Assembly (NCBI GenBank): GCA_021811615.1
Contig: JAJZNW010000087.1
Location: 2,263 to 66,262, forward strand
DNA length: 64,000 nucleotides
Source of the DNA: Bacteroidota bacterium
Lineage (GTDB): Bacteria > Bacteroidota > Ignavibacteria > Kryptoniales > JAKASW01
Reading direction: 5' to 3'
Shown here: in pieces, positions 3,486 to 56,842 of the stretch
Layout of the letters: every line of letters starts with the position of its first letter
Position numbering within the stretch: position 1 is the first letter of the stretch
Notes under the pieces: model-generated
The model's database searches: none
Seen by the model: only the letters and a program-made list of their open reading frames with translations
Told to the model about the DNA's origin: nothing
Translations under genes and position numbers: made by a program

Positions 3486-5336
3486 TCATCTCAGACTCTC
3501 GAAATAATGCTCCAGCAGTTCCTTGTCGCGGTAGGTTTCGCTCAATACCCGCTTTCTCTGCACGAGTTCCTGGTATTCGAAATCGAGGTCGTCGGTGCTC
3601 GACCCTTTCTTCTCCTGGCCGGCGATGCGCGCGGTGAGCATCTTAAGCCTCTGGTCGATCTGCTCGAGCTCGAATGAAATGAGGAGCTGCGAAATCCATT
3701 TGAGATAGTCGGGGGTTTCGCTGCCGGGTCTTATCTCTTCCCACCATATCCTGCTTCGTTGAGGTGCAGCAAAAGCCAATTCGGCGAACGCCTTCCTGAC
3801 ATTTTCGGACGAGAGTTCGTCGATGACGGCAGACGCAGGGTTTCCGCTGCTTCGTGCAGCTATGACTTTCTCGATGATTTCACCGGTCATCGGGTCCTGT
3901 ATCTCCAGCCTGGAAATCTGACCGGCAACAATCTCGAATAGGGATTCATCGACATTTACGAGAAGGCTTATGAGATCCCGATCGGCTATCGCGAGGCGCA
4001 ATTCCTGCCGTTTCACCTGGGCCGGCTGAGCTGGTTGGTACCTCGAATGCGACGACTTTCTCTTCTTCAGCTCTTCGTAGATGGCTTCCTCCCGCAAGCC
4101 GAATTTGCCTGCGAGATCTTTGACGTAAAGATTCACCTTGATCGCATCGCTGATTCTTGCGAGCGATTCCACTATCGATTGAATTATCGCGGCTGTGTTT
4201 GAAGATGAACCGGTCCGGCTTGCAAGCAACGAGGCTTTGAATTCGACGATGTTCATCGCACTGCCTATGAGCGACATGAACTCTTCGCTCCCCTTCGCAA
4301 GAACGAAAGTATCAGGGTCCTCACCCGGCGGGAGCTCCACGATGTAGACGTTCATCCCATGTTCGAGAAGTATGTCCGATCCCCGCATCGAGGCGTCCTG
4401 TCCGGCCGTATCCGCATCGTAAACGAGATATACATTCTGCGTGTAGCGGGAGATGTGCTGAATCTGTTCGATCGTAAGGGCGGTGCCGCTGGAGGCGACT
4501 ACGTTTCGGATTCCCGACTGGTGGAGCGCGATGAGATCGGCGTAGCCTTCGACCAGGATGGCGGCGTCCTTTTCTATGATCGCATCCTTTGCCTGGTAAA
4601 TTCCGAAAAGAGTCCTGCCTTTGATGTACGCCGCCGTCTCGGGTGAATTGATGTACTTTGCCTTCTCATCCGGCTTCAACGTCCTGCCTCCGAAGGCGAT
4701 GACGCTCCCGCCGGCAGAAAAGACCGGGAACATTACTCTTGCCCTGAAACGGTCGTAATATCCCGAACCGTCCTGCCTCTTCAGAATGAGTCCCGACTTT
4801 TCGATTGTCTTCTCGTTCATCCCCTTCTTCTTAAGGTGGTTGAGAAGTCCATCCCATCTGTCTGGCGCGTACCCGATCATGAACCTGTCGATTGAGTCGT
4901 CGTTGAATTGCCTCTTCTCTTTCAAATACGCGAGCGCTCTGGCTCCTTCGTCTGACTGAAGCATGTCACGATAATACCTGACCGCCTTTTCATTTATGTC
5001 GAGGACTTCGTCGACGTCGTTGTGCCTCTCGTCGGAATACGACGGTAGAGTGATGTTAGCTCTCGATGCGAGCTGCCTGAGTGCTTCTCCGAAGGATACC
5101 TTTTCGTGCTGGGTCAGGAAAGTGAATACATTTCCGCCCGCGCCGCAGCCGAAACAATGGTACAGACCTTTCTCCCTGTTCACGGTAAACGACGGAGTTT
5201 TTTCCGTGTGGAACGGGCAGAGGCCGAGATAATTCTTCCCTCGCTTCTGGAGCCGGACATACTGGGATATGATGTCGACGATGTCAGTAGCGCGTCTTAC
5301 TTCTTCTACGATGCTGTCTGAGGAAAATTTGCTCAT
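3486..5336 (-). CDS. dnaG: DNA primase
   Basis: Zinc-finger CPFHTEKTPSFTVNREKGLYHCFGCGAGG and a TOPRIM segment VEGYADLIAL...VYLVYDADTAG. I chose the start at MSKFSS (ATG, complement of 5334-5336); a GTG at 5381 is the alternative. Confidence 0.93.
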   Translation of the reverse strand: MSKFSSDSIVEEVRRATDIVDIISQYVRLQKRGKNYLGLCPFHTEKTPSFTVNREKGLYHCFGCGAGGNVFTFLTQHEKVSFGEALRQLASRANITLPSYSDERHNDVDEVLDINEKAVRYYRDMLQSDEGARALAYLKEKRQFNDDSIDRFMIGYAPDRWDGLLNHLKKKGMNEKTIEKSGLILKRQDGSGYYDRFRARVMFPVFSAGGSVIAFGGRTLKPDEKAKYINSPETAAYIKGRTLFGIYQAKDAIIEKDAAILVEGYADLIALHQSGIRNVVASSGTALTIEQIQHISRYTQNVYLVYDADTAGQDASMRGSDILLEHGMNVYIVELPPGEDPDTFVLAKGSEEFMSLIGSAMNIVEFKASLLASRTGSSSNTAAIIQSIVESLARISDAIKVNLYVKDLAGKFGLREEAIYEELKKRKSSHSRYQPAQPAQVKRQELRLAIADRDLISLLVNVDESLFEIVAGQISRLEIQDPMTGEIIEKVIAARSSGNPASAVIDELSSENVRKAFAELAFAAPQRSRIWWEEIRPGSETPDYLKWISQLLISFELEQIDQRLKMLTARIAGQEKKGSSTDDLDFEYQELVQRKRVLSETYRDKELLEHYFESLR

Positions 5337-9158: not shown

Positions 9159-11249
9159 ATGAAAAAGGGAGTGACGTACGCCATATTTGTGGCGCTTCTC
9201 CTTACCATGGCCGGATGTTCAAAATATAAGGTGGCGTCTTTCGTGATGCCGACCTGGAATATGCAGCTTTCGGCGCCGATTTTCGACCGAACGTATACGC
9301 TTTTGCAAATGATTTCAAAAGACACTGTTCAGGTCACGAACGGCGACACTACTTTTCTCCTGCCGAACTCGCAGACCCAGGTCTTCACGCTTTTGAGATC
9401 TCAAACCCTTAACGGCATTTCGGTCGGGAGCAATTTGAAAATCGGAGCTGTGCCTCAGACGAACGTTGCCCAGAGTCCGAAAGACTTTTCCATCGCCAAT
9501 CCGCCGTCCATCCACTATTCGGCTATAAACTCGTCAATCGTTACCGGCACAGTCCCTTTGGTCCCTGCGATCCCAAAACAGAGTGAGACCATTACACCGA
9601 CGGACGCATTCACGAATTTCAAGACTGCTACACTCAGCAGCGGAACATTGACGATCACAATCCACAACGGCTATCCCGCCGCCATCGACTTCGAAAACGG
9701 ACTTAATCTGATCGATGCTAACGGACAGCCCATCAACATTCCTGTTCCGAACAATTCGATACCGGGAAACCAGACTGTCGCACTTCCCGCAGTTTCGCTC
9801 GCAGGCAAGACTATTTCGGATCAGCCCTCGGTTACATTCACCGACAGTTCCAAGGGGTCATCGTCGCCTGCGACGATACAATCCGATACGACCATATCAT
9901 TTTCCGCTTCGATGGCAAATGTCCATGTGTCGTCTGCGAATGCGATAGTGCCGGCTCAGCCCGATATCGTCATCGACTCGAGCATCGTCATCCAGGACGG
10001 TAACAAGGTACAGACCGCATCCATCGACACCGGAAGCGTCAGCTTAACGGTGAGAAACAACTATAACATAAGTATTCCTGTCAGCCTCAGCATTCCAGGG
10101 CTCAGCAAGAGCGGGGCATCTCTCACACGGAGCTTCACGTTGTCTCCCAAGGGGACGTCGGGGAGTGTGTACTCTACTCCGATTTCTCTCAACGGCTACA
10201 CTCTGAACATGGCCGACCCGTCGACGGGTGCTCCTTCCGATTCGCTGAAATATAACGTCACTGCTCAGATTCCGGGATCTAATGGAAGTTACGTTAATAT
10301 CGCAACTACCGATTCCATCACTGCTTCGTTCCAGCTGACGGGGCTTCAACTTTCGTCTTTCTCCGGAGAGGTCCATCTCGCGAATCCTATCAACATTGCT
10401 CCCGATACACAGAAGGTGGATCTTGGTTCGTTTGCATCGAAGTTCAACGGCGCAATCCTCTTTGGACCTGGAACGACGCTGCAGCTGAGAGTAAACAGCA
10501 TAGGTTTCCCCTGTGAGGCTCACATATCGCTTATACCAACGAGCAGCGAGTACCTTTCATCCGCCCCTGTGGATTCTGCCGTCGTGGATACGATGATCTA
10601 TCCCAACCGCACTAACGTGATAACGCTCGGTCAGAGTTTCGTTAAGGCTCTCAATGCTTTCTCCGAAACTTACAGGACTATCCCCGACAGGTTCATAATC
10701 AGCGGATACGTGCTTGTGAATCCTGGAGGCACCGCAACAGGATCTGTCAAGAGCACAGACATGGTAACGGGGAGCGGAACGATCACGATGCCGTTAGATC
10801 TTGGAATCATCAACGCGCAGTATGCGGATACAACCAAGACCGCCGTCATAACCGATTCCAGTACGTCAGCGAAACTTGCCAATGTCGATAGCGGTAGCGT
10901 CGTCATTGAAGTATGGAACGGCCTGCCGCTGCAGGTTACCATGATGGGGCAGCTGATCGACACGACGACTCACGCCGTCCTCATGAATTTTCCGAGTGAC
11001 AGCATCTACATTCCGGCGGCTCAAATCAACCCGGACGGGAGTGTCAAGGATTCTGTGTTCAGCAAGAACATCGTTTCGCTTACGGCGGCGCAGGCAAAGA
11101 GTCTCGGGAACAGTTATATGAGATTCTTCTTCAGAGTTGTGACGCCACCCGGGGCGACTACGGTCCCGTTCAAGAAGGATAACGATATTTCCTTGAGGGT
11201 CTACGGCAATTTTGCCCTCAAGGTTGACAAAAGCCTGACCGGAAAGTGA
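9159..11249 (+). CDS. large lipoprotein with three internal beta-sandwich-like repeats, function unknown
   Basis: Signal peptide plus lipobox LLLTMAGC. A repeated motif is visible three times: SSGTLTITIHNGYPAAI / DTGSVSLTVRNNYNISIPV / DSGSVVIEVWNGLPLQV. Composition is Ser/Thr/Asn-rich. Confidence 0.7.
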   Translation: MKKGVTYAIFVALLLTMAGCSKYKVASFVMPTWNMQLSAPIFDRTYTLLQMISKDTVQVTNGDTTFLLPNSQTQVFTLLRSQTLNGISVGSNLKIGAVPQTNVAQSPKDFSIANPPSIHYSAINSSIVTGTVPLVPAIPKQSETITPTDAFTNFKTATLSSGTLTITIHNGYPAAIDFENGLNLIDANGQPINIPVPNNSIPGNQTVALPAVSLAGKTISDQPSVTFTDSSKGSSSPATIQSDTTISFSASMANVHVSSANAIVPAQPDIVIDSSIVIQDGNKVQTASIDTGSVSLTVRNNYNISIPVSLSIPGLSKSGASLTRSFTLSPKGTSGSVYSTPISLNGYTLNMADPSTGAPSDSLKYNVTAQIPGSNGSYVNIATTDSITASFQLTGLQLSSFSGEVHLANPINIAPDTQKVDLGSFASKFNGAILFGPGTTLQLRVNSIGFPCEAHISLIPTSSEYLSSAPVDSAVVDTMIYPNRTNVITLGQSFVKALNAFSETYRTIPDRFIISGYVLVNPGGTATGSVKSTDMVTGSGTITMPLDLGIINAQYADTTKTAVITDSSTSAKLANVDSGSVVIEVWNGLPLQVTMMGQLIDTTTHAVLMNFPSDSIYIPAAQINPDGSVKDSVFSKNIVSLTAAQAKSLGNSYMRFFFRVVTPPGATTVPFKKDNDISLRVYGNFALKVDKSLTGK

Positions 11250-11260
11250 GGAGAGGGAAA

Positions 11261-12724
11261 ATGAAGAGAATATTAGTCCTTGCAGCCCTTTTCCTCGCCC
11301 CGTTGGTCAGCCTGCGCGCGCAACAGATCGCAAGCAGCAGGCTGATCTCGATGGGGGGTGTGTCAACGGCAGTATCATCCAACGTAGATGCCATAGGTAC
11401 GAATCCCGCGAATTTGGTCGCGATTTCCCGCGGCAATGTCGTCGTCGAACTTGCGCCGATCAGTGTGAGGGCGGGAACGGATTTCATGAGCCTCGGCCTC
11501 TACAACAACTATTTCACCGGCACCGGCCAGGTAGACAGCGCCGGCAAAAAGATCGGAAAGTACCTCACGGCGGCGGATAAACAAAACATATTGGATGCAT
11601 TCCCCGGTGGCGTAGGGGAGGTGCTTACCGACGTCAGCATTCGTGACTTAGGCGTTTCGGTGCGGAACAATGACTTCGCCCTCGGTTTTGCCGTCGACGA
11701 TAATATCGGCGCCCGTGCTACTGTGCCGAACTCTTTCGTGATGTTCGCTCTCGATGGGAATGCTCCGGGATCTAATTTCTCGTGGGACAATATCAGCTCG
11801 ACGGCGTGGTGGTACAGAAGCTATAACGCCGACTTTGCGATCAGACTCCCTAATCCGGTCGCGATCCCCAAAGACATCGCAAACGATTTCAGCGCAGGCA
11901 TCGGGGTCAAATACGTTACCGGTCTTGCATACGCCTCGGCGCAGACGGACAACAGCTACTTGCAGACCGACTCCGCAAATTACGCTTTCAACGTAGGTCT
12001 GGGATTCAACGGGATGCGCGCCGGCATTCTAAGCAACGCGATTTCCAAGGTGATGAAGAGCAGTGTCGGCGACAGGACGGTGAATTTGAACCCGTTTTCT
12101 CCCGCAGGCACGGGATTCGGCTTCGATCTCGGCGGTACCGCGAGAGTTCTCGAATTCGTCAAGGTTGGCGTCAGCTTGACCGATATAGGATCGATTTCCT
12201 GGACGAAGAACACCATCACCACGTCCGGCGATACTTCTTTCACGTTCAATGGCTTTTCACCTGCCGAAACCGGCGTCCCTAACGCGACGAGTAACCTCGA
12301 CAGCCTCAACAATGCTTTCAAAAATTTCTTCAAGAACAGGGATTCATTGTCGTCGGGCTTCACTACACCGCTCCCGACGCGTTTCAACCTGGGTGCGTCA
12401 GTGAACATGGATGAGGTGTTCCCGTCGATTCCGGGCCAACTCCTTCTCGCAGTTGACTATCACCAGGGACTCAACAACTCTCTCGGTAATTCCACGGTCC
12501 CGGAGTTCGACCTCGGTGCGGAGTGGAAACCCGTTGGTTTTCTTCCCATAAGGACGGGACTCGGATTCGGCGGTGCTTATGGTTTCAGATGGGCATTGGG
12601 TATCGGCATCGACATGCCATTCTGGGATATCGATCTGGGTGTCGGAACATTCAATGCCGTAGTTGCGCCAACCAGTGCGAAGGACCTATCTGTGACGCTA
12701 AGTTTCCTCAAGTTCAGATTCTGA
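11261..12724 (+). CDS. outer-membrane beta-barrel protein (FadL/PorV-like, putative)
   Basis: Signal peptide MKRILVLAALFLAPLVSLRAQQ, N-terminal ISMGGVSTAVSSNVDAIGTNPANLV, alternating barrel-like sequence, and a C-terminus ...LSFLKFRF ending in Phe. GAGGAGAGGG precedes ATG 11261, while the track start GTG 11246 overlaps the upstream stop. Confidence 0.7.
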   Translation: MKRILVLAALFLAPLVSLRAQQIASSRLISMGGVSTAVSSNVDAIGTNPANLVAISRGNVVVELAPISVRAGTDFMSLGLYNNYFTGTGQVDSAGKKIGKYLTAADKQNILDAFPGGVGEVLTDVSIRDLGVSVRNNDFALGFAVDDNIGARATVPNSFVMFALDGNAPGSNFSWDNISSTAWWYRSYNADFAIRLPNPVAIPKDIANDFSAGIGVKYVTGLAYASAQTDNSYLQTDSANYAFNVGLGFNGMRAGILSNAISKVMKSSVGDRTVNLNPFSPAGTGFGFDLGGTARVLEFVKVGVSLTDIGSISWTKNTITTSGDTSFTFNGFSPAETGVPNATSNLDSLNNAFKNFFKNRDSLSSGFTTPLPTRFNLGASVNMDEVFPSIPGQLLLAVDYHQGLNNSLGNSTVPEFDLGAEWKPVGFLPIRTGLGFGGAYGFRWALGIGIDMPFWDIDLGVGTFNAVVAPTSAKDLSVTLSFLKFRF

Positions 12725-19842: not shown

Positions 19843-20367
19843 CCCGGAATGCCAGCTCATCGGCTCGGAATGGGAATTCTCAGCCTCGGAATGGGAAATC
19901 ACAAGCTCGGAATGCGAAATCACAGCCTCGGAATGCCGGCTCACAGCCTCGGAATGCGAAATCGCAGCCTCGGAATGCCGGCTCACAGCCTCGGAATGCG
20001 AAATCGCAGCCTCGGAATGCCAGCTCAAAGCCTCGGAATGCGAAATCGCAGCCTCGGAATGCCGGCTCAAAGCCTCGGAATGAGAAGTCACGAGCTCGGA
20101 ATGCCGGCTCAAAGCCTCGGAATGAGAAGTCACAAGCTCGGAATGCCAGCTAAAAGCCTCGGAATGCGAAATCACAAGCTCGGAATGCCAGCTCAAAGCC
20201 TCGGAATGAGAAGTCACGAGCTCGGAATGCCGGCTCAAAGCCTCGGAATGAGAAGTCACAAGCTCGGAATGCCAGCTAAAAGCCTCGGAATGAGAAGTCA
20301 CAAGCTCGGAATGCCGGCTGACAGTCTCGGAATGCGAAATCGCAGGCTCGGAATGCGGATTCACCGG
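19843..20367. repeat. 25 tandem copies of a 21-bp unit (invariant core CTCGGAATG + 12 variable bp, alternating A/B subtypes giving a 42-bp super-unit)
   Basis: Read directly; units start at 19843+21n. There are exact higher-order duplications: 19927-19968 = 19969-20010 and 20074-20157 = 20200-20283. The array fills the convergent gap between murI (stop 19830) and the GNAT gene (stop 20382). Confidence 0.97.
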
Positions 20368-20381
20368 CTACGCCGGAGCTT

Positions 20382-20870
20382 TCAGCCTTTCACTTGCGCC
20401 AGGTCCAGCTCGAAGAACATCGCGTCCGGAAGCGGATTCACACGGTATTGCGGAATTTCCCTGAACCCGAACGACCTGTAAAGCGCGATGGCTTCAACCA
20501 TCGAGCTCACAGTGTCGAGCCGCATCTTCCCGTATCCGATTTGTCTTGCCTCGTCGATAACCCTTTCCGCGAGTCTCCTCCCGAGTTTCAATCCTCGAAA
20601 CTCCGGCCTTACATAGAGTCTTTTCATCTCGCAGATCCCCTCTTCCAGCCTCCTCAGTGCCACACAACCCGCCGCGTGGTTGCCTCCAAGCGCTACAAGT
20701 ATGCATCCGCCGGGTCTCGAGTACTCACCGGGGAGATGAGATACCTCTTCGTCGAAGTTTTGAAAGTCGAGATCGAAGGGAAGTGACTTCTCGTACTCCA
20801 GGAAGAGATTTTTTGCGGCCGAGAGCAGCTCCTCTGAATCGGCATCGAGTATTCGGAGCGTGGGTTTCAT
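20382..20870 (-). CDS. GNAT-family N-acetyltransferase
   Basis: Acetyl-CoA motif A: CEMKRLYVRPEFRGLKLGRRLAERVIDEAR. Start chosen at MKPTLRIL (ATG); a GTG at 20921 is the alternative. Confidence 0.85.
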   Translation of the reverse strand: MKPTLRILDADSEELLSAAKNLFLEYEKSLPFDLDFQNFDEEVSHLPGEYSRPGGCILVALGGNHAAGCVALRRLEEGICEMKRLYVRPEFRGLKLGRRLAERVIDEARQIGYGKMRLDTVSSMVEAIALYRSFGFREIPQYRVNPLPDAMFFELDLAQVKG

Positions 20871-47924: not shown

Positions 47925-49319
47925 ATGAGCTCGACAAAGATCATAGCCGGCGGATATGGCTTTGTGTGCGATGAAGAGAACAGGAGCGGTCTCTTAAATA
48001 TCGCGGTCCGTTCGAATCTCATCGTGGAGGTCTCGAAGGACTTGGACGGCCTCAAGCGAAAATATCCTGATGCCGAAATTGTAGATGCTTCGAACAAGAT
48101 CATCCTCCCAACCTTTTTCAATTCGCATTTCCATCCCGAATCCATGGTCACTAGATTTGCCGAACCACGAATACCGATTTCGCAGTGGGCATCCGGGGAT
48201 CTTCTCCATTTGGAAACCGCGCTCGACTCGCAGGACGAGGATTTTTACGAGAAGATGTATCACCTGACATTCTTCAGTGCAATACAGAGCGGTGTGTCCG
48301 CCATTGCATTCTCAGTGATAGGAGATGAATCGGGCGCCAGAGGAATGTATTCTGCGATCAAGCTCACGGGGGTTGATGCCGTCGCCTTCGCGGAAGGCGA
48401 GCAGCAAATCGGCTTCCTAAGGAGGATCGTGGATCGGCATCTGAAATCGGGCGTATTCGTCCCATACCAGAAGGATCTTACACTTTTCAGCCTTAGTGCG
48501 GTGGCGAGAAACAATGCAGACTCCCCCGGATGGATAATGACACATGCCGATGAGGACCCTGCAGATACCGAGACCACCAGGTCCAATTTCAACTCCGGTA
48601 TAATTCAGCTTCTAAGAAAGAGCAAAATCCTCAACAGCTCCACGATACTTGTCGGATTAAACGGGACGCCTGCAGCCTCACTTAAAGTTGCCAAAACATC
48701 CGGGGCGAAGATCGTGATCATTCCGGAAAACATCAATGCGCAGACATTCAAATCGATCCGCAACATTTACAGGCAATTTGCAGTCGGGTCCAACTGGGAA
48801 ACGCCGGGAATGTTTCTACAAATGAAGAAACTGCTTGAACTCGGATGTGAACCAGGCCAGGCGCTGATGAGTGTCACTCGATCGGGGGCGGAGCTATTCA
48901 ACATGGGATCCAAGCTCGGGAGTATTGAGGGAGGCAAGGTGGCGAGTTTCACTTTCCTGGACGGGAGCAAACTTTCTGCAAGAAGGCTGGAGAAACTACC
49001 CGCAGAAGCGGCGGCGGGTGCATTCATAGAGGATTATTCCGATTCTGACGTCTCCGACGTTATGCTGGACGGAGAGTTCGTTTATAGAGACCGGAAACTT
49101 CTTCTATACGATATGGGTGAGCTTCTAAACGAGGAGAAAGAGCTTATGGAGATACTGATCGGACAGGGCGAGAGCGTCGTCCCTCCGGTTGAGCCTAAGC
49201 CTCCGGCGTTGAGGACCCAGGAGATCAATGTTGAAAATAATGCCGAAGCTGAACAGGAATCCAAGAAAGTAGAGCTCCCGAAGAACATACGAAAGGTTTT
49301 CGGAGAAGATGAATTCTAA
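47925..49319 (+). CDS. amidohydrolase-superfamily protein
   Basis: LPTFFNSHFHPES (HxH metal motif) after an N-terminal beta-rich segment. GGGAGG SD precedes ATG 47925. The C-terminal tail is acidic. Confidence 0.65.
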   Translation: MSSTKIIAGGYGFVCDEENRSGLLNIAVRSNLIVEVSKDLDGLKRKYPDAEIVDASNKIILPTFFNSHFHPESMVTRFAEPRIPISQWASGDLLHLETALDSQDEDFYEKMYHLTFFSAIQSGVSAIAFSVIGDESGARGMYSAIKLTGVDAVAFAEGEQQIGFLRRIVDRHLKSGVFVPYQKDLTLFSLSAVARNNADSPGWIMTHADEDPADTETTRSNFNSGIIQLLRKSKILNSSTILVGLNGTPAASLKVAKTSGAKIVIIPENINAQTFKSIRNIYRQFAVGSNWETPGMFLQMKKLLELGCEPGQALMSVTRSGAELFNMGSKLGSIEGGKVASFTFLDGSKLSARRLEKLPAEAAAGAFIEDYSDSDVSDVMLDGEFVYRDRKLLLYDMGELLNEEKELMEILIGQGESVVPPVEPKPPALRTQEINVENNAEAEQESKKVELPKNIRKVFGEDEF

Positions 49320-49331
49320 AAGGAGAATGAA

Positions 49332-50105
49332 ATGAGATTTAAGGCCCTTCTATTGGTACTTCTGACGTCATCGGTGGTGTTCGCTCAGAACGTGAACGGA
49401 AGTGCAGGGACCGCGGCAGGCGTCGAGGAGCAATATCTCGTCGACATGCCGACGGCCGGAATCCTCCACAGCGGCACGATAGAAATGGGTGTGAACTTCT
49501 ATGAAAACAGCGGCGTCCTTGTATCGCTCGAAGCGGGGGCGTTCAACCGCCTCACGTTTGGTCTGAGCTATGGCGGTACAAATGTGATCGGCTCTGGTCC
49601 GGTTGACTGGAACAATCTCCCCGGTGTGAATGTCCGGTTCAGGCTGATCGATGAGACGACGGATTTCCCCGCTATTACATTCGGGTACGATTCGCAGGGA
49701 AAGGATGCATACCTTTCCCAGTACAACCGTTATTTGTACAAGTCTCCCGGATTTTTCGCGGTCGCTTCGAAGTACTTCAACATGTTGGGGTATCTCGGCA
49801 TTCACGGAGGAGTCAACTACTCGATGGAGAATGGGGACGGAAATAAGAACATAAATTTCTTTGTCGGTGCCGACAAAACGATAGGGAGAGATATTTCGGT
49901 CGTTGCCGAATACAATTTTGGAATGAACGACAATTATCCGGACACTGCGATGCTTTCCAGGCCGGGGCCCGGTTATCTAAATGCCGGCATCAAGTGGAGT
50001 GTTGGTAACGGCTTCACAGTTGAGTTCGACTACAAGAACATTCTCAACCTCAGAAAAACCGGAAGTCTAAGGACAATAAGAATAGAATATGCCCAGTCTA
50101 TGTAG
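49332..50105 (+). CDS. secreted/outer-membrane protein, beta-rich, function unknown
   Basis: Signal peptide MRFKALLLVLLTSSVVFAQ and a Gly/Tyr/Asn-rich alternating sequence. It sits 12 nt after the amidohydrolase gene. Confidence 0.5.
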   Translation: MRFKALLLVLLTSSVVFAQNVNGSAGTAAGVEEQYLVDMPTAGILHSGTIEMGVNFYENSGVLVSLEAGAFNRLTFGLSYGGTNVIGSGPVDWNNLPGVNVRFRLIDETTDFPAITFGYDSQGKDAYLSQYNRYLYKSPGFFAVASKYFNMLGYLGIHGGVNYSMENGDGNKNINFFVGADKTIGRDISVVAEYNFGMNDNYPDTAMLSRPGPGYLNAGIKWSVGNGFTVEFDYKNILNLRKTGSLRTIRIEYAQSM

Positions 50106-50521
50106 AAGTGCGGAAGAACCACTCGGAAATCGGTTAAGATTAATTAATATTAAGGGTCACAGAAAAACCTTGCGTCGCTTTCTTTTGTTATAGAAATTGA
50201 AGCGAGGTTATTAGATGATGATTGCGGTTCTTATGTCGGCCTTCTTAGCGACCGGAAGAGTCAAAGGCGACACGCTTAGTACGAGGGGCCTTGCGAAGGA
50301 CTTTAGGATGTTCTATCATCCACCTGCGGTGTTTCTGAACCAATCTCAGAATGCGATGTGGGAAAGAAATATTATGCCCCTGATCTTCGTCTCTCCATTC
50401 GGTACCGGTTCCTTTCTTTACAGGTACGACGGTCAGCCTACGAGTCGCGGGTCAGAAATAGGGCCTGGTGGGATTAAGCGTAGCGACGAGAATTCGCGTC
50501 GAAAAAAATGAGGTGATTGCC

Positions 50522-52006
50522 ATGAAAACAAAGTTGGCGACTTTAGCACTTTCGCTCCTGGTCGTTCTCGGGATGTCGGGCTGTTACACCGAGTTTGCGG
50601 CCACTAGCGGCAATTACGGTGGCTACGGGTCATCGTACAGTTCCAGCAGTTCCGATACTTCTCAATACGGTTACAGTCCTACTTACTATGATTCGACGGG
50701 CGCTCCGCAGGTAAACCCAAATTACCCCAGCAGTGAATATGGATACGGTACCTTCGGCATGGGTGGTTACGGGTTCGGTAATCCGTGGCCCTATAACAAT
50801 TACGGCTTTTTCGGTCCTTCATACGGGTATTATCCTGGGTGGACTTACAGCATGTATTACCCCAGTTCGGCCTGGTGGCCGATGGACTCGTGGTCTCTAG
50901 GATTTGGCCTTAATTCATGGTATGGCGGCCCATACTCATATGGTGGTCTTGCCGGTTGGGGGAATTGGGACTGGAACTACTATACTCTGGGCTATCTGGG
51001 TGGGTACTATCCGTATAATTCATATTACGGAGGTTACGGTCCGTATTCTTCGTATTACCCATACTACTCCTCCTACGGAGGGACTGGCGTCGGATATCCA
51101 GCAAGGGCCAGGAACATCGGCGGCACGCGACTCGGACGTGACTACGGCAGCGGTGCGATGCCCGTTGGCAGCGGGACCGGGGCGGCTGTCGGTACAGCCA
51201 GCGGTGTGAGAGGAGAATCGGTAGGCGCGAATGGTTCCTCCGTTACCAGGACCAGGACAGGAGGTTCGGAGAACCCGGTGGGAGGGTATGGTACGGTCAA
51301 CAATGTAAATAACCGCCAGAGGGTGCGCGAGCGTGTCCCGAGATACACCCCGGCTGCACAGGGTAATCCGAACTCTGCCCCATCACCGGCGCAGCGCGGC
51401 AGGGCCAGCTATACTCCAGCATCTCAGCAGAATCCGAATCCGGCGCCGAATGCGCAGCCGCAGCAGCCGAATCAGCAGCCGCCTGTTAGACAGCGTGCTC
51501 CAAGTTATAACCCGCCTCCGCGGAACAATTCGAACCCGGCACCGAACTCTCAACCACAACAGCCGAGTCCGCAGCCACAGCCGCAGCCACGAGTTCGCGA
51601 ACAGGCGCCGAGTTATAACCCGCCGCCTCAGTACAATCCGCCTCCGCAGTATAATCCGCCGCCACAGTACAACCCGCCTCCACAGTATAATCCGCCGCCG
51701 CAGTACAACCCGCCTCCGCAGGCGCCGCCTCCGAGGATCAGGCATGAGTATTCATCGTACGAACTCGGCGCGATTCGAGCCCAGGCGTCGCAGCCAGTGC
51801 AAGAGGTGAGAGTGATCAGGGAGCGTTTCAACTATGCTCCACCGGTGCAGATAGCACGCGCCGGTCAGATGCCGAGTTTCAGGGAGAACGCGCCTCGTTT
51901 TGGTTACCGCGCCGCTTCGGCAATGCCGGCAATGAGAGAGTCAACTCCTTCCGCACCCCCGTCAAGGGGTGCGGTCGCCAGCGGGGGAGCGAGAGTGCGC
52001 CACTGA
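50522..52006 (+). CDS. low-complexity lipoprotein (Tyr/Gly/Ser-rich then Pro/Gln/Asn/Arg-rich repeats)
   Basis: GAGGTG SD and signal plus lipobox LVVLGMSGC. The extreme composition is visible in the translation, and only this frame is open across the whole region with a signal peptide. Confidence 0.7.
   Translation: MKTKLATLALSLLVVLGMSGCYTEFAATSGNYGGYGSSYSSSSSDTSQYGYSPTYYDSTGAPQVNPNYPSSEYGYGTFGMGGYGFGNPWPYNNYGFFGPSYGYYPGWTYSMYYPSSAWWPMDSWSLGFGLNSWYGGPYSYGGLAGWGNWDWNYYTLGYLGGYYPYNSYYGGYGPYSSYYPYYSSYGGTGVGYPARARNIGGTRLGRDYGSGAMPVGSGTGAAVGTASGVRGESVGANGSSVTRTRTGGSENPVGGYGTVNNVNNRQRVRERVPRYTPAAQGNPNSAPSPAQRGRASYTPASQQNPNPAPNAQPQQPNQQPPVRQRAPSYNPPPRNNSNPAPNSQPQQPSPQPQPQPRVREQAPSYNPPPQYNPPPQYNPPPQYNPPPQYNPPPQYNPPPQAPPPRIRHEYSSYELGAIRAQASQPVQEVRVIRERFNYAPPVQIARAGQMPSFRENAPRFGYRAASAMPAMRESTPSAPPSRGAVASGGARVRH
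51614..51721 (+). repeat. 6 x 18-bp in-frame repeat encoding YNPPPQ
   Basis: tat aac ccg ccg cct cag / tac aat ccg cct ccg cag / tat aat ccg ccg cca cag / tac aac ccg cct cca cag / tat aat ccg ccg ccg cag / tac aac ccg cct ccg cag. The peptide is identical across copies, but the codons differ synonymously. Confidence 0.95.
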
Positions 52007-52112
52007 TACTGCTCTTTGATATTGCCGGCAGATAAACCTGATCGTTCAGGCGTCCACCGGCAAAATTCTGTTGATTATTCTCTGAAGTGTTCACTAACCA
52101 GGCGGTAGCAGC

Positions 52113-53624
52113 ATGAAAAGCAAACTATTGATATTGTTCTCCTTCCTATTCCTGTTCTCCATTAATGCTTTTGCCCAATATCCCGAGGACGCGCTTAGAT
52201 TAGCAGAGGGCGGTTATGGCGTCAGTGCTAAATCCGTCGCGATGGGGAATGCCATGATCGGGTTGGCGCAGGGATTCGACGCGACCTATTTCAACCCTGC
52301 GGGATTGGCCCAGTCGAGACAATCCCAGGTCCAGATGGGATTGAATTTCATCGGCTACACCGACAACTCCACCTATCTGGGCAACAGTAATTCACTTTCG
52401 AGTTCACAGACAGATCTCTCCAGTCTCGGGTTGGTATATCCGTTCCCGACGACAAGGGGGAGTTTCGTAATTGCGTTCGGCTACAACCATGGACCGGACT
52501 ACAATGCAGCTCTGGCGGTAAGCGGGTATAATCCTAACAGTTCAATCATACCTTCGCTTTATTATCCGGGAGATACGCTCGCGGACATTGCCTATATGGA
52601 TTTCCTCGAGAACGCCAGCCAACAGCCTTACATCGATGGGAATGTTAACCAGAGCGGGAATGTCTACGTTTCCGGCGGACTGAGTAACTGGCTTGCTTCT
52701 GCCGGTTTGGATATCGCGCCTGAATTCTCTCTCGGACTTACGATAAATCTGATAAGCGGACAGTACAAATATGTCCAGAATTTTCAGGAGAACGGAGTTC
52801 CCGGCAACAATTACAATTCCACTTACTTCACGTCGTTCGGTTTGAAGAATGAGGACAATCAGAGCATCAGCGGGTGGAACGCGAAGTTGGGGATGATGTA
52901 TCGAGTACTTGACTCGGGGGGAAATACCATCGCCAGGTTTGGCGCGACCGTGGAGTTTCCAACTCTCCTTACGGTGAACGATAATTTTAGCTCGAATGGG
53001 ACAGCGTCTTTCGCGGCAGGCCCGCTCGGTCCTGCAGGATCATATTCATACGCAACAAGCAACGGTTACGGACAGAATGAATCGCCCTATCCAGGGCCTA
53101 CCCTGCAGTATGATGTGACGACTCCATTCAAGTTGGGCTTTGGCGTTTCAGGCGGGACTCCGCAGCTGCAGGCGGCGGCGGACATTCAATATGTCGATTG
53201 GACAGAATTGGCCTTCAGCAATTTCAATTTGCCGTCTGGTCAGAGTCCGGCCACAAATCTCAATGGCCAGATCAAGCAGCAATACCGCGCGACGACGAGC
53301 TTCAGGGCTGGAGTGGAATATGCACTGACGAATCCAAACTATTCGCTTCTGGTGCCATACTTGAGAGCAGGCGTAGGCTATTTACCATCTCCATATAGCG
53401 GTGATGGATCTGCCCAGGCTCAGAAGCTTGTCAGCGGAGGTATCGGTGTCAAGATCCAAAACACCATAGAGATCGATGTCGCTTATCAGTACGATTATTG
53501 GAATACTACGAGTCAGCTTTATCCAAGCACCGTCATAAACGGCATTACATACGCGTCGCAGAGTACGAGCAACGAAAAGATCACCAATACGAATTTCCTT
53601 TTCACGTTCAAGTATGATTTCTGA
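52113..53624 (+). CDS. outer-membrane beta-barrel protein (FadL/PorV-like, putative)
   Basis: Signal peptide ...SINAFAQ, N-terminal GVSAKSVAMGNAMIGLAQGFDATYFNPAGLA (compare the 11261 gene), and C-terminus NTNFLFTFKYDF. Confidence 0.7.
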   Translation: MKSKLLILFSFLFLFSINAFAQYPEDALRLAEGGYGVSAKSVAMGNAMIGLAQGFDATYFNPAGLAQSRQSQVQMGLNFIGYTDNSTYLGNSNSLSSSQTDLSSLGLVYPFPTTRGSFVIAFGYNHGPDYNAALAVSGYNPNSSIIPSLYYPGDTLADIAYMDFLENASQQPYIDGNVNQSGNVYVSGGLSNWLASAGLDIAPEFSLGLTINLISGQYKYVQNFQENGVPGNNYNSTYFTSFGLKNEDNQSISGWNAKLGMMYRVLDSGGNTIARFGATVEFPTLLTVNDNFSSNGTASFAAGPLGPAGSYSYATSNGYGQNESPYPGPTLQYDVTTPFKLGFGVSGGTPQLQAAADIQYVDWTELAFSNFNLPSGQSPATNLNGQIKQQYRATTSFRAGVEYALTNPNYSLLVPYLRAGVGYLPSPYSGDGSAQAQKLVSGGIGVKIQNTIEIDVAYQYDYWNTTSQLYPSTVINGITYASQSTSNEKITNTNFLFTFKYDF

Positions 53625-53651
53625 TGTGCATGAGTCGCATGGAGGTGTGAT

Positions 53652-54356
53652 ATGATACGCAGGATGATTCTCTTACTCCCGGTTCTGTTTTTCTTTGCAG
53701 GCGCCGCCGCACAGGCACAATTATTGGGAAGCGGGAGCGTTAAGGACAACTTTGGCTATGAAATGAAATCGTTTCGGAGTGCGCCGGTTGCTGGGCAGGA
53801 TTACTTGTTCAACGGCACCTCGCGATTTGCCAGACCAATGGGTGCGATAGCAGCGCCCGAATACTCGCCGGTGCTTATGAACGCCACTTCGCTGGGTGCC
53901 GGGGCAGTCGGAAGTTTCCCGTTGCGCAATGATCTTTTTCTCAGAATTTCACTCATCAGTCTTTATGAGCCGGTTTCTACCTTCGGGGCGATCCCCTCGT
54001 CCCAGGGTGTATTGTTGCCGGTAGAACTGGGTGTTAGAGTTCCGTTCGTACAATCGAGACTGAGTACGCTGGGGTACACGCTCTACGGAGAGGGTTCAGC
54101 GGGAATGCTCTTCGGCTGGGCCTTTCCGACCAGCGGGTCGTTCCTGAATTACTCGCTCCCGTACTCGAGGTTCACGACAGGAGCATCGGCCTATCTCGGC
54201 GTGGGGAACTCACTTCGCCTTGCCAGGTTCGTGGGATTGTACCTGAACGGCGGTGTCGGTTACTACAACTTCTTCTCGACGTCGTTCATGCCGCAAACGA
54301 GATACGTGGTACCTTCCGTCTCGGTCGGATTCCTTTTTAACTTTACGCAAGGGTAA
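53652..54356 (+). CDS. small secreted/outer-membrane beta-rich protein, function unknown
   Basis: Signal peptide LLLPVLFFFAGAAAQAQ, Gly/Ser/Leu/Tyr-rich alternating segments, and C-terminus VSVGFLFNFTQG. Confidence 0.45.
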   Translation: MIRRMILLLPVLFFFAGAAAQAQLLGSGSVKDNFGYEMKSFRSAPVAGQDYLFNGTSRFARPMGAIAAPEYSPVLMNATSLGAGAVGSFPLRNDLFLRISLISLYEPVSTFGAIPSSQGVLLPVELGVRVPFVQSRLSTLGYTLYGEGSAGMLFGWAFPTSGSFLNYSLPYSRFTTGASAYLGVGNSLRLARFVGLYLNGGVGYYNFFSTSFMPQTRYVVPSVSVGFLFNFTQG

Positions 54357-54421
54357 AGAGCAGCAAATCTTATCGAGCCTCTCTGTTGTTACATTGGCAC
54401 GCGCTTCGCTAAATTAAGCAG

Positions 54422-56842
54422 GTGAAACGGTTTAAGTTTGTTGCGGCGGTGAGCTCGCTTACATTATTCATAATACTCGTAAGCGTGATACTGTTGCTGA
54501 GGAAATTCGGAACTTCATCTCTGCCGCAGCTTGACGGGAGAGAGGCGGTGGCAGGGCTCGGTGGCACAGTCGAGATTCGCAGGGATAGTCTCGGTGTTCC
54601 TTATATAGTTGCGCACTCCGACTCAGACGCCTACTTTGCGCTCGGATTCGTGCATGCCCAGGACCGGCTGTTCCAGATGGAACTATACAGGCGCCTGGGG
54701 GAAGGTCGACTCAGTGAGATTTTCGGAAGCAAGCTCATACCGGTGGACGAGCTTTTCCGGACCCTGGGGTTCAAGCAGATGGCTGACTCCCTCTACAGAA
54801 ATTGCTCTCCGATAAGCAAGAACATACTCCGTTGGTACTCCGATGGTGTGAACGCGTACATTGCAAATGCCAAGACCTTTCCAGCAGAGTTCGCGATGCT
54901 CAAGTTTTCACCCGGACTATGGAAACCGCGTGACAGTTTCATCGTCGCGAGGCTGATGGCGTGGGAACTGAACATCTCCTGGTGGACCAAGCCGGTGTTT
55001 GGTGAGCTCTATGACAGCCTCGGAGCGCAGAAGGCGTCGCTTCTTATCCCGCTTTTCGCAGGTTCCAAAGGAAGAATCGCCGACGCATCGTATGGCATGC
55101 GTCGATCTGCGATCAGCGGTTTCATGAAGGCAAATTCTCAGGCATTTGCGATGTTGGGGGGAGCTAAGTCTCCCGACTGTTTCGGGAGCAACAATTGGGC
55201 GATCGCCCCGTCGAGGACGAATACCGGATCTGCGATCCTGTGTAACGACCCTCATCTCGCTTTCAGTGAACCAGCCAAGTGGTATCTCGTTTCGATCTCC
55301 GCCCCGAATTTGCACGTACTCGGGGTCTCACTCCCGGGCGCGCCGGGCATCGTGATCGGTAGGGACGACAGTATTGCATGGGGAATGACGAACGTCATGT
55401 CGGATGATTCGGATTTTTACATAATGCAGCCTGACTCTTCGAATTCCAATATGTATTGGTATAATGGAAAGCTTCTTCCTTTCATTACTTCTGAAGACAC
55501 TATCGAAGTAAAGGGAGCGACGCCGTATGTTTTCGTACGGCGCTCAACGATTCTCGGCCCTGTGGTAAGTGGAGTCATTTCCTCTTCGTATAAAATGACC
55601 TATGTCGGGAACGATGTGGCCGAGCCCGGGGGAATAGTCGCACTTCGTTGGAGTGCATACTGGCCCAGTGATGAAGTCAGATCGATGTACCTGCTCAACA
55701 CCGCGAACAATTTTGAGGAGTTTCTTGAAGCCCTGAGCTACTTCGGAGCGCCGGCGCAGAATTTCGTCTATGCGGATGTTGAGGGAAATATCGGCTACAA
55801 GGCGGCGGGCAATATCCCCCTCAGGCGTTACCCTTTGCCTTTCCTTCCCCAGTCGGGAAATTCGAGCAAGTTTGTCTGGAACGGTTTCATCCCGTTCAGC
55901 GCTTTGCCGGAAAGCTTTGACCCCACGGCGGGTTTTCTGGCTACTGCGAACAACCGCACAACGCCTGATAATTATCCTTACTACATCACTAACCTGTATG
56001 AACCGTCGTCGCGAATAGACAGGATAAGATCGTTCATAGAACAGCACGACACAATGAGCGTCGCCCTTTCCCGGCAGCTCCAGTTGGATTACTACTCCCA
56101 ATTTATGGTTTCCCTGAACCGGCATCTGCTTGCGGCATGCGATAGCATGAAGTATTACCCGAGGGAACTTGTGTACTTGAAAAATTTTGAAGGGACGATT
56201 AGCGCCAAGAGCACCGCCGCGACGATTTTGAATATGACTTTCGTGAACATGATGAGAAATGTTTTTGAACCGGTGATGGGGAAAGGACTCTACGACAGAT
56301 ATGTAGTGATAAGCAATGTCCCGACGAGGATACTGAGCAGCATGATGGATCGGCCTCAGCTGCTGGCACAACTATACGGGGTGTCGAACGGTGATAGCCT
56401 GCTCGATCTGGATCTAACTAGAAGCCTGGAAAGCTCGCTGCAGAAGCTGAGGGCGGAGTTCGGTCCGCATCCGATCGATTGGATGTGGGGAAGAATTCAC
56501 ACACTGGAGCTTGAGCACCCGCTCAAATCAAACGCGATCGTGAGGGCTATATACGACGCCGGTCCATTCCCGAGAGGCGGCAACAACACGACAGTGAACA
56601 ACGGCGAATATTCTTTCGACAAACCATATCACATGAAAGTCGGTCCGTCGATGAGGATGATCGTAGACATGAGTAAAGACGGGATGTATTTCAGCCTTCC
56701 CGGCGGGGAGTCAGGTCAAATCCTCAGTCCGTATTATTCAGACCTGCTTAGGAATTATCTCGACGGCAAGCTGACTTTTTTCCCGATCACGCTTCCAGGA
56801 AATGAAATTGCGCACCAATTGACATTATCGCCACACCGATGA
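54422..56842 (+). CDS. penicillin-acylase-family Ntn hydrolase (possible acyl-homoserine-lactone/beta-lactam acylase)
   Basis: GTG start and an N-terminal TM/signal helix. ALGFVHAQDRLFQME is followed by the autoprocessing/nucleophile motif GSNNWAIAP and then CNDPHL. Length is 806 aa. Confidence 0.88.
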   Translation: MKRFKFVAAVSSLTLFIILVSVILLLRKFGTSSLPQLDGREAVAGLGGTVEIRRDSLGVPYIVAHSDSDAYFALGFVHAQDRLFQMELYRRLGEGRLSEIFGSKLIPVDELFRTLGFKQMADSLYRNCSPISKNILRWYSDGVNAYIANAKTFPAEFAMLKFSPGLWKPRDSFIVARLMAWELNISWWTKPVFGELYDSLGAQKASLLIPLFAGSKGRIADASYGMRRSAISGFMKANSQAFAMLGGAKSPDCFGSNNWAIAPSRTNTGSAILCNDPHLAFSEPAKWYLVSISAPNLHVLGVSLPGAPGIVIGRDDSIAWGMTNVMSDDSDFYIMQPDSSNSNMYWYNGKLLPFITSEDTIEVKGATPYVFVRRSTILGPVVSGVISSSYKMTYVGNDVAEPGGIVALRWSAYWPSDEVRSMYLLNTANNFEEFLEALSYFGAPAQNFVYADVEGNIGYKAAGNIPLRRYPLPFLPQSGNSSKFVWNGFIPFSALPESFDPTAGFLATANNRTTPDNYPYYITNLYEPSSRIDRIRSFIEQHDTMSVALSRQLQLDYYSQFMVSLNRHLLAACDSMKYYPRELVYLKNFEGTISAKSTAATILNMTFVNMMRNVFEPVMGKGLYDRYVVISNVPTRILSSMMDRPQLLAQLYGVSNGDSLLDLDLTRSLESSLQKLRAEFGPHPIDWMWGRIHTLELEHPLKSNAIVRAIYDAGPFPRGGNNTTVNNGEYSFDKPYHMKVGPSMRMIVDMSKDGMYFSLPGGESGQILSPYYSDLLRNYLDGKLTFFPITLPGNEIAHQLTLSPHR

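Follow-up and report, generated by a model that had tools for sequence, protein, structure and literature searches.

The gene at positions 50522..52006 (+) of a 64,000-nucleotide stretch of contig JAJZNW010000087.1, from a Bacteroidota bacterium of the order Kryptoniales (the whole stretch is called the window here), encodes a lipoprotein that probably has no fixed fold and that stands in a conserved module between the genes of two outer-membrane barrels. Outer-membrane lipoproteins and FadL-type barrels are each familiar. The novelty lies in a lipoprotein predicted to be foldless, apparently conserved for the chemistry of its blocks over its sequence and locked in a module with two barrels, and for which the curated libraries searched (Pfam and NCBIfam) contain no matching family.

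The gene is genuine, is translated in frame and is under strong purifying selection. It starts with an ATG at 50522, with the Shine-Dalgarno (SD) sequence GAGGTG 7 nt upstream, and its 494-residue product includes a 20-residue signal peptide followed by Cys21, the residue predicted to be lipidated. In comparisons with the two closest relatives fetched, from loci L005 and L001, the ratio of nonsynonymous to synonymous substitution rates (dN/dS) is 0.115 and 0.076, respectively, third codon positions take up 125 of 172 and 189 of 263 differences, and every insertion or deletion is in frame; it is because of these three features that the gene is regarded as real and translated. For the same pairs, dN/dS is 0.04-0.09 in the aromatic block, 0.02-0.04 in the Pro/Gln block and 0.32 in the tail, and the flanking barrel genes give 0.015-0.05. 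The low complexity of the sequence, together with ORFs (open reading frames) overlapping on both strands, would be the argument for a spurious ORF or for the use of another frame at 50522..52006, an artefact that is practically excluded, as it is refuted both by the marks of selection (dN/dS of 0.08-0.12, third-position excess, in-frame indels) and by conservation, with the start, SD, lipobox and C-terminus all kept in about 40 homologues of several lineages. The same evidence upholds the initial annotation of this DNA, made from its letters, where it described a translated lipoprotein of unusual composition kept in relatives. The gene and its parts are as follows.

50522..52006 (+): lipoprotein gene, identified by its ORF, SD, lipobox, dN/dS of 0.08-0.12 and homologues P0001-P0006, P0019-P0027 and P0148-P0173
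50522..50608 (+): signal peptide MKTKLATLALSLLVVLGMSG, Cys21 and mature start CYTEFAATS, with C-Y-T-[E/Q] invariant across the family
50585..51112 (+): acidic aromatic block, residues 22-197, 31% Tyr/Trp/Phe, net charge about -5
50690..50698 (+): likely O-glycosylation sequon D57-S58-T59, matching D-[ST]-hydrophobic/T at a conserved position
50861-50920 (+): conserved motif PSSAWWPMDSWSLGFGLNSW, residues 114-133, inside the aromatic block
51101..51142 (+): basic motif ARARNIGGTRLGRD (R.R..G.TR.GR), with R197, G200 and R203 nearly invariant family-wide
51143..51613 (+): basic spacer, a G/S/V/T/R stretch and then four R-x-R..P-x-Y-[NT]-P..NP.AP modules
51614..51721 (+): six YNPPPQ hexapeptides, residues 365-400, an 18-bp tandem repeat of 5.8 copies
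51722..52003 (+): Arg-rich tail with the end GGARVRH, the terminal GGxRxR[HR] or GGGRR being conserved

Among the window's 42 long ORFs, the protein is a clear outlier in composition. Its mature chain of 473 residues contains no Lys at all, against a background of 5.6% in those ORFs (a chance probability of about 1e-12 by our own estimate), and Leu, Ile, Val and Met together make up 11% of the ORF and 8% of the mature chain, against 26%. Residues 22-195 consist to 80% of Tyr, Gly, Ser, Trp, Asn, Pro and Phe (Tyr 21%, Gly 21%, Ser 14%; aromatic residues 31%), and [GS]Y[GS] triplets occur nine times there, against 4.8 +/- 2.0 in shuffled sequences (p about 0.04). Residues 196-290 are rich in Gly, Val, Ser, Ala, Arg and Asn, whereas Pro makes up 32% and Gln 17% of residues 291-404; Pro accounts for 8% of the aromatic block and 15% of the whole chain. 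The R-x-R..P-x-Y-[NT]-P modules begin at residues 267, about 292, 323 and 357, and the YNPPPQ repeat varies in copy number among close relatives, with six copies in the window, five in L001 and four in L005. In the tail (residues 405-494) all 14 Arg-plus-Lys positions per 90 residues are Arg, and spacer and basic tail together carry a net charge of +21. The earlier description of an aromatic-Gly chain followed by a Gly/Arg/Ser stretch, four modules, six YNPPPQ copies and an Arg-rich tail proves accurate on recount; its picture of mere low complexity falls short, as the fixed motifs CYT[EQ], PS.WW..D.W.GFG, R.R..G.TR.GR and terminal GGxRxR[HR] are conserved.

The family to which these motifs belong was assembled in steps. 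A word-indexed search over 5.8 billion proteins yields six clusters, an exhaustive hidden Markov model (HMM) search of 1.84 billion representatives with a profile of the Kryptoniota N-terminal block (N block) yields 12 proteins, and the wider family, reached via synteny and then with a mixed-clade profile, adds 27 more clusters. The result is a family of about 40 protein clusters from Kryptoniota and from other metagenome-assembled genomes (MAGs) labelled 'Bacteroidota', whose database members are unnamed or 'hypothetical', with Kryptoniota or 'Bacteroidetes' MAGs as sources. On distant 'Bacteroidota bacterium' contigs, the gene directly upstream of a homologous FadL-type barrel encodes a protein built to the same plan, which has diverged beyond the reach of the first, N-block profile. 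Neither Pfam nor NCBIfam gives a match to the lipoprotein and PDB sequences give chance matches only (E 0.8-0.9), in line with the earlier statement that it belongs to no known folded family.

Across 35 full-length members, the N block spans 118-177 residues, is 26-36% aromatic and has a net charge of -4 to -16, while the C-terminal block (C block) spans 119-297 residues, is 1-7% aromatic and carries 18-36 Arg and a net charge of +11 to +27. Lys is held to 0-4 residues per whole chain, a low-GC, Asn-rich member included. An R..G..R motif at the junction of the blocks is kept across the family, and the C-terminus is Arg-rich throughout, as GGGRR, SRGRRP or RxRH. Within Kryptoniota, PS.WW..D.W.GFG, SP[FY]YPYG, GRVR.IGDTR.GRE.YGGG and QPRVR[DE] are fixed. 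Clades differ in the filler of the C block, which is Pro/Gln in the clade of the window, RGG-like (Arg-Gly-Gly) with 32-39% Gly in another and Ser/Asn elsewhere. Judged by this alignment of designs, the conserved object is the two-block chemistry, and the Pro/Gln modules and YNPPPQ repeats, which are restricted to the clade of the window, are a lineage-specific spacer, because the filler is exchanged from clade to clade. The initial annotation had stressed these modules and repeats, and they are indeed present, but as clade-specific filler and not as a hallmark of the family.

Two loci contain extra lipoproteins bearing the same modules: a 175-residue 'GCYT' paralogue between lipoprotein and barrel at L014:7013-7540, and at L016:6752-7249 a 165-residue lipoprotein whose ordinary-looking N-terminal part gives way to a segment rich in aromatics and, at the end, ..GGYSRR. 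Because of these, the aromatic-plus-Arg module seems to be portable.

The mature chain is probably disordered, as judged by structure prediction and composition. AlphaFold2 with an alignment of seven sequences gives a mean predicted local distance difference test score (pLDDT) of 41.5 and a predicted template modelling score (pTM) of 0.17; the signal peptide is the sole helix in this model, and the YNPPPQ run the sole stretch above 60 (pLDDT 62-78). For residues 1-230 with a 29-sequence multi-clade alignment, the values are 47.0 and 0.20, and in this second model the mature chain shows one 3-residue helical turn and otherwise essentially no secondary structure. With a grand average of hydropathy (GRAVY) of -1.01 and a net charge of +16 over 474 residues, the chain lies where charge and hydropathy predict disorder, as calculated here with Uversky's line. 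The probable disorder that had been proposed at the outset thus finds backing in the two mean pLDDT values and in a mature chain modelled with no fold.

By its lipobox the gene product is a lipoprotein: the N-terminus, MKTK..LGMSG before the Cys (MKTKLATLALSLLVVLGMSG followed by C), passes a PROSITE PS51257-type pattern, so that the lipobox LGMSGC claimed earlier satisfies the rule, and L-S-[GS]-C or a similar lipobox is found in about 40 homologues. The O-glycosylation sequon of Bacteroidota is D-[ST]-hydrophobic/T (PMC12578637). A sequon of the form D-[ST]-[A/T/L/V/M] occurs about 30-40 residues past the Cys in 24 of 27 members, and 32 sites are seen where shuffling leads to an expectation of about 10, so an O-glycosylation site is likely at D57-S58-T59. 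Of the C-terminal sorting signals considered (PEP-CTERM, GlyGly-CTERM, LPXTG and the C-terminal domain, CTD, of T9SS, the type IX secretion machinery), none is found, the C-terminus having only a basic cluster and no Pfam or NCBIfam CTD match. With a maximum 19-residue hydropathy average of 0.77 in the mature chain, and with neither a hydrophobic C-terminal segment nor a CTD match, PEP-CTERM-type sorting is rejected. Peptidoglycan binding of the OmpA/Pal type is rejected as well, since no Pal/OmpA-like, LysM or SPOR domain is matched in Pfam (E <= 0.1) or NCBIfam (E <= 0.5).

The lipoprotein gene is the middle member of a triad, which is accompanied downstream by two further genes.

49332..50105 (+): 257-residue signal-peptide outer-membrane protein, first of the triad, weakly YjbH/GfcD-N-like
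52113..53624 (+): 503-residue FadL/TodX-type barrel, third of the triad, assigned by profile search and by Pfam on homologues
53652..54356 (+): 234-residue signal-peptide protein, accessory, of no known family
54422..56842 (+): penicillin-amidase-family acylase (N-terminal nucleophile, Ntn; PvdQ-like) with an N-terminal membrane anchor, Pfam E 5e-192

The order 257-residue barrel, lipoprotein, FadL-type barrel is found in all 16 related loci (10 from Kryptoniota, and L011-L016) in addition to the window, and in the distant loci the two barrels are 42-48% and 32-39% identical, respectively, to their counterparts in the window. The linkage of the triad is more than inherited gene order, because L014 and L015 keep the triad intact amid entirely different flanking genes. 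The link with the adjacent FadL-like barrel that had been suggested is strongly supported by this conserved adjacency, also in different genomic contexts. In 15 of the 16 related loci (tblastn), including some with differing neighbours, the triad is followed by the acylase gene, which may belong to the same functional unit. The list of neighbours given initially was incomplete, as it missed this recurrent gene and a conserved 98-residue ORF described below.

All three proteins flanking the lipoprotein had been called barrel-like, which HMM comparisons bear out for two of them. Many homologues of the 503-residue protein carry a PF03349 (Toluene_X) record, and a profile of 35 homologues retrieves TbuX (3BRY, E 4.9e-7) and TodX from the PDB, with E-values from 5e-7 to 3e-4, so that by sequence it is placed in the FadL/TodX family of outer-membrane barrels; the window protein alone has no Pfam match at E <= 0.1. 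It matches the NCBIfam BamG model NF053685 with 65.4 bits (cut-off 250, E 5e-18) over model positions 116-371, a match that misses the N-terminus, and the PorV/PorQ model NF033709 with 35.6 bits (cut-off 90) over residues 36-78 only; PDB profile searches return no BamG chain at E <= 10. With scores this far under the cut-offs, membership of BamG or PorV is rejected. The 257-residue protein matches Pfam YjbH (PF06082) at 21.7 bits, below the gathering threshold of 24, with residues 36-131 aligned to profile positions 10-111 of 658, and nine of nine homologues match YjbH weakly as well (best E 4.8e-6). The 234-residue protein, for which the earlier label did not hold to the same extent, matches no family in Pfam, NCBIfam or PDB profile searches. 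It is likely a small outer-membrane protein, and its gene is present in Kryptoniota and L011, whereas L016 has a gene of similar size and undetected similarity. PDB profiles built from close homologues of the 503-, 234- and 257-residue neighbours give nothing useful.

Regarding function, the favoured reading, put forward tentatively and with somewhat less than even confidence, is that of a lipid-anchored chain docked on the barrel, associating with itself head to tail and perhaps binding glycans or polyanions, in a cohesive layer at the outer membrane. The lipidated invariant N-terminus would dock on the FadL-type barrel, or pass via its lateral opening. This is proposed because BamG, in the machinery for beta-barrel assembly (BAM) of Bacteroidota, holds the highly conserved lipidated N-terminus of BamH (PMC12611786, PMC12578637), and the invariance of C-Y-T-[E/Q] is the kind of feature that docking would conserve. 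Bt1785 and Bt1786 form a paralogous pair of BamG-BamH with genes side by side, and PorV, a FadL homologue, carries secretion cargo (PMC12611786, PMC12578637). The present system resembles BamG-BamH in joining a FadL-family barrel (14-stranded in BamG) to a lipoprotein with a conserved lipidated N-terminus, within the Fibrobacteres-Chlorobi-Bacteroidetes (FCB) superphylum, and it resembles Bt1785/Bt1786 in the adjacency of the two genes. Unlike BamG, the barrel is far below the cut-off and nearer to TbuX/TodX, and unlike BamH, a folded two-domain surface protein with an acidic export signal, the lipoprotein has neither a predicted fold nor such a signal.

Once tethered, the chain would act as a multivalent 'sticker' polymer, the Tyr/Trp block of one molecule pairing head-to-tail with the Arg block of another; it could also bind glycans or polyanions, and the outcome would be a hydrated, cohesive layer. 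Arg-aromatic contacts are invoked because Arg is kept and Lys is excluded whatever the filler. Aromatic and Arg counts also rise together across the 35 members (Spearman 0.84). Proteins of the FUS family, which phase-separate in eukaryotes, combine a low-complexity domain rich in Tyr, Gly and Ser with an RGG region, a Tyr-Arg 'sticker' grammar. In its content of Tyr, Gly and Ser the aromatic block agrees with prion-like or FUS-type domains, which are defined by uncharged low complexity with [GS]Y[GS] triplets. The lipoprotein is comparable in having a nearly uncharged Tyr/Gly/Ser block followed by an Arg-rich, Lys-poor one, of RGG type in some clades, but it is bacterial, lipid-anchored, exported and rich in Trp and Pro, with no RNA-binding domain and no homology to FUS, the likeness being compositional. 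If self-association or the binding of envelope polymers holds true, the Tyr/Arg 'sticker' logic of eukaryotic condensates would extend to the bacterial envelope, and the FCB group would have a second example, BamG-BamH being the first, of a FadL-type barrel that partners a lipoprotein.

Several points count against this reading. The contact between lipoprotein and barrel is argued from gene adjacency and analogy, and the sequences nearest to the barrel are those of TbuX and TodX, which are hydrocarbon channels, and not BamG or PorV. The failure of AlphaFold2 on a shallow, gappy alignment is no proof of disorder, and a binding partner could bring order to the conserved motifs and to short alternating stretches (SWSLGFGLNSW, for example). 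The correlation of aromatic with Arg counts is uncorrected for phylogeny or length, and the evenness of aromatic spacing does not differ significantly from shuffled sequences (z = -1.4). Finally, the surface-export rule of Bacteroidota lipoproteins, at least two acidic residues among the six after the lipid-bearing Cys (PMC12578637), does not describe the family: CYTEFAT has one and CYTQMG or CYTQLG none, although the validity of the rule in Kryptoniota is itself unestablished.

This last result bears on the side of the membrane at which the chain would lie, and it does not favour the surface matrix or adhesive that had been suggested at the outset, this rule being the only one available for sorting. 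The periplasmic side is favoured because the residues after the Cys depart from the export rule, and the surface because of the FadL-type and GfcD-like partners and of a precedent in the extracellular loop 3 (EL3) of Bacteroidota BamA, a flexible Tyr/Gly/Asn-rich loop of 38 residues that is invisible in cryo-electron microscopy (PMC12578637). The two have in common a flexible Tyr/Gly/Asn-rich segment at an FCB outer membrane; EL3 is part of a barrel and has no Arg-rich block, unlike the lipoprotein, in which an aromatic block of 120-180 residues is followed by one. The family may offer a handle on such segments, a recurrent feature of FCB outer membranes for which no role is known. A bolder variant, considered distinctly unlikely, casts the triad as a dedicated machine for displaying on the cell surface a disordered, lipid-anchored polypeptide that is glycosylated and, with its Tyr block and Arg block, FUS-like. 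In this picture the FadL-type barrel, aided by its GfcD-N-like neighbour, would let the lipid anchor out through its lateral opening and into the outer leaflet, and Tyr-Arg condensation of the chains would then give a protein 'capsule' or gel. In models, GfcD consists of a 12-strand N-terminal barrel and a second barrel with a lateral gate, by which a lipid-anchored polymer is released into the outer membrane (PMC11494523, PMC8592465). By analogy with this GfcD/YjbH barrel of group-4 capsules, the triad would pair a small barrel with a FadL-type one that opens laterally, the polymer again being anchored by lipid. It differs in that the match is sub-threshold (21.7 against 24 bits), homologues of GfcB, GfcC and GfcE are not found and the polymer is a polypeptide and not a polysaccharide. 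Such a coat would be the protein counterpart of lipid-anchored capsular polysaccharide, and would make a sticker-and-spacer condensate a form of bacterial coat.

Among the alternatives to a docked cohesive polymer, the resemblance of the barrel to TbuX and TodX instead of BamG or PorV speaks for a role in uptake, in which the barrel would import a hydrophobic or N-acylated compound, the periplasmic acylase would deacylate it, and the aromatic-rich lipoprotein would capture and concentrate the ligand near the channel, helping it as surface lipoproteins assist SusC-type barrels. Sources that label the barrel homologues 'long-subunit fatty acid transport protein' point the same way, as does the acylase that follows in 15 of 16 loci, L015 and L016 with their differing contexts included. 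It is not obvious, however, how a disordered chain of 260-490 residues, with its 18-36 Arg and its conserved Arg end, would bind a ligand; L014 has the triad without the acylase, the 257-residue barrel is left without a role, and FadL/TodX channels are not known to require a lipoprotein partner, which together make uptake unlikely. Judged unlikely to a similar degree is a periplasmic tether, a link like Lpp, Pal or LpoB but with no folded domain, which would account for the absence of a surface-export signal and for a long Pro- or Gly-rich spacer before a strongly basic tail, net +21 in the window. About half of the outer-membrane lipoproteins of E. coli bear a disordered N-terminal linker according to a preprint (bioRxiv 10.1101/2021.01.05.425367). 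A C block that ranges from 119 to 297 residues would be a poor ruler for a tether, OmpA-like, LysM and SPOR domains are not found in Pfam or NCBIfam, and the obligatory pairing with two barrels and the 30% aromatic block are left unexplained. LpoB and RcsF of E. coli are linker-bearing, largely disordered lipoproteins, and BilRI of Aggregatibacter is a disordered outer-membrane lipoprotein (PMC5383217). The three share lipid anchorage and whole or extensive disorder with the protein described here; their linkers are of an ordinary polar kind, or a small folded domain is present, and none has the 30% aromatic block, the exclusion of Lys or the fixed barrel-gene partner.

The best NCBIfam match of the 503-residue barrel, BamG (E 5e-18), together with reports of BamG and BamH homologues in six of seven other FCB phyla (PMC12611786), would suit an accessory of the BAM type, in which this barrel is a BamG-like subunit and the Tyr-rich lipoprotein replaces BamH as a chaperone-like disordered canopy, comparable to the flexible EL3 of BamA. 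The 65 bits against a cut-off of 250, the N-terminus left outside the match and a PDB profile search that yields TbuX and TodX but no BamG make this very unlikely, and so does the nature of BamH, a folded two-domain protein with acidic residues after the Cys; moreover, gene calls and annotations around the triad, in the window and in the loci with gene lists, include neither bamA nor bamD. Less still can be said for a subunit of a functional amyloid or fibre (curli- or Fap-like) nucleated at the membrane, which is suggested by the richness in Tyr, Gly, Asn and Gln and by short alternating segments such as SWSLGFGLNSW, and which is considered highly improbable. The lipid anchor and the abundance of Pro (8% of the aromatic block, 15% of the chain) run counter to it, repeat units of the strand-turn kind are missing from the aromatic block, the AlphaFold2 models contain no strands, and Pfam and NCBIfam scans find no neighbour resembling CsgG, CsgB or FapF. 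The curli type in particular is rejected, for want of strand-loop-strand repeats, strands and secretion-channel or nucleator neighbours.

Upstream of the lipoprotein gene, an apparent intergenic gap of about 417 bp is occupied by a conserved ORF of 92-98 residues, itself preceded by a promoter-like element.

50167..50198 (+): ACCTTG..N11..TTTGTTATAGAAATT, a promoter-like element that lies upstream of the small ORF and is kept in 9 of 9 aligned loci
50215..50511 (+): small ORF of 98 residues (MMIAVLMSAFLATG..GDTLST..FYHPPAV..IKR..RRKK-stop), conserved, with no Pfam family

The small ORF is in frame in seven of nine Kryptoniota loci, is annotated as a 97-residue gene in L009 and L010, has tblastn matches in eight loci and a dN/dS of 0.21-0.35, and is absent from L011-L016. 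Its invariant D-T-L fits the O-glycosylation sequon. Translational coupling to the lipoprotein gene is likely on the evidence of the nucleotide sequence, because the TGA stop of the small ORF falls in the SD region of the lipoprotein (GCGTCGAAAAAAATGAGGTGA), inside the invariant GCGTC-A7-TGAGGTGA from which that SD derives. The junction GCGTCGAAAAAAATGAGGTGATTGCCATG (50494-50524), which holds stop codon, A7 run and SD, is near-invariant in its nucleotides in nine loci, and its alignment folds into a weak 6-pair hairpin with zero covariation. Rfam gives no match over 49000-54500, the sigma-70 promoter and terminator scans do no better than on shuffled sequences, and the element ACCTTG..N11..TTTGTTATAGAAATT does not fit the sigma-70 scan. 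In L011 (about 5000-5020), L012 (about 5125-5145) and L013 (about 5095-5115), the lipoprotein gene is preceded by TGGCAC-N5-TTGT, a -24/-12 pattern of the sigma-54 type.

Elsewhere in the window, at 19845-20356, a 42-bp unit is repeated in tandem 12.2 times with 88% matches; the array overlaps a 210-residue ORF (19849-20481) with LGM-type peptide repeats and is unrelated to the lipoprotein. At 9159-12724 (+), the gene of a 696-residue lipoprotein (..LLTMAGC..), to which Pfam gives no meaningful match, overlaps by 4 bp the gene after it, which encodes a DUF5723 protein (E 1e-33), and the two may represent a second pair of lipoprotein and outer-membrane protein.

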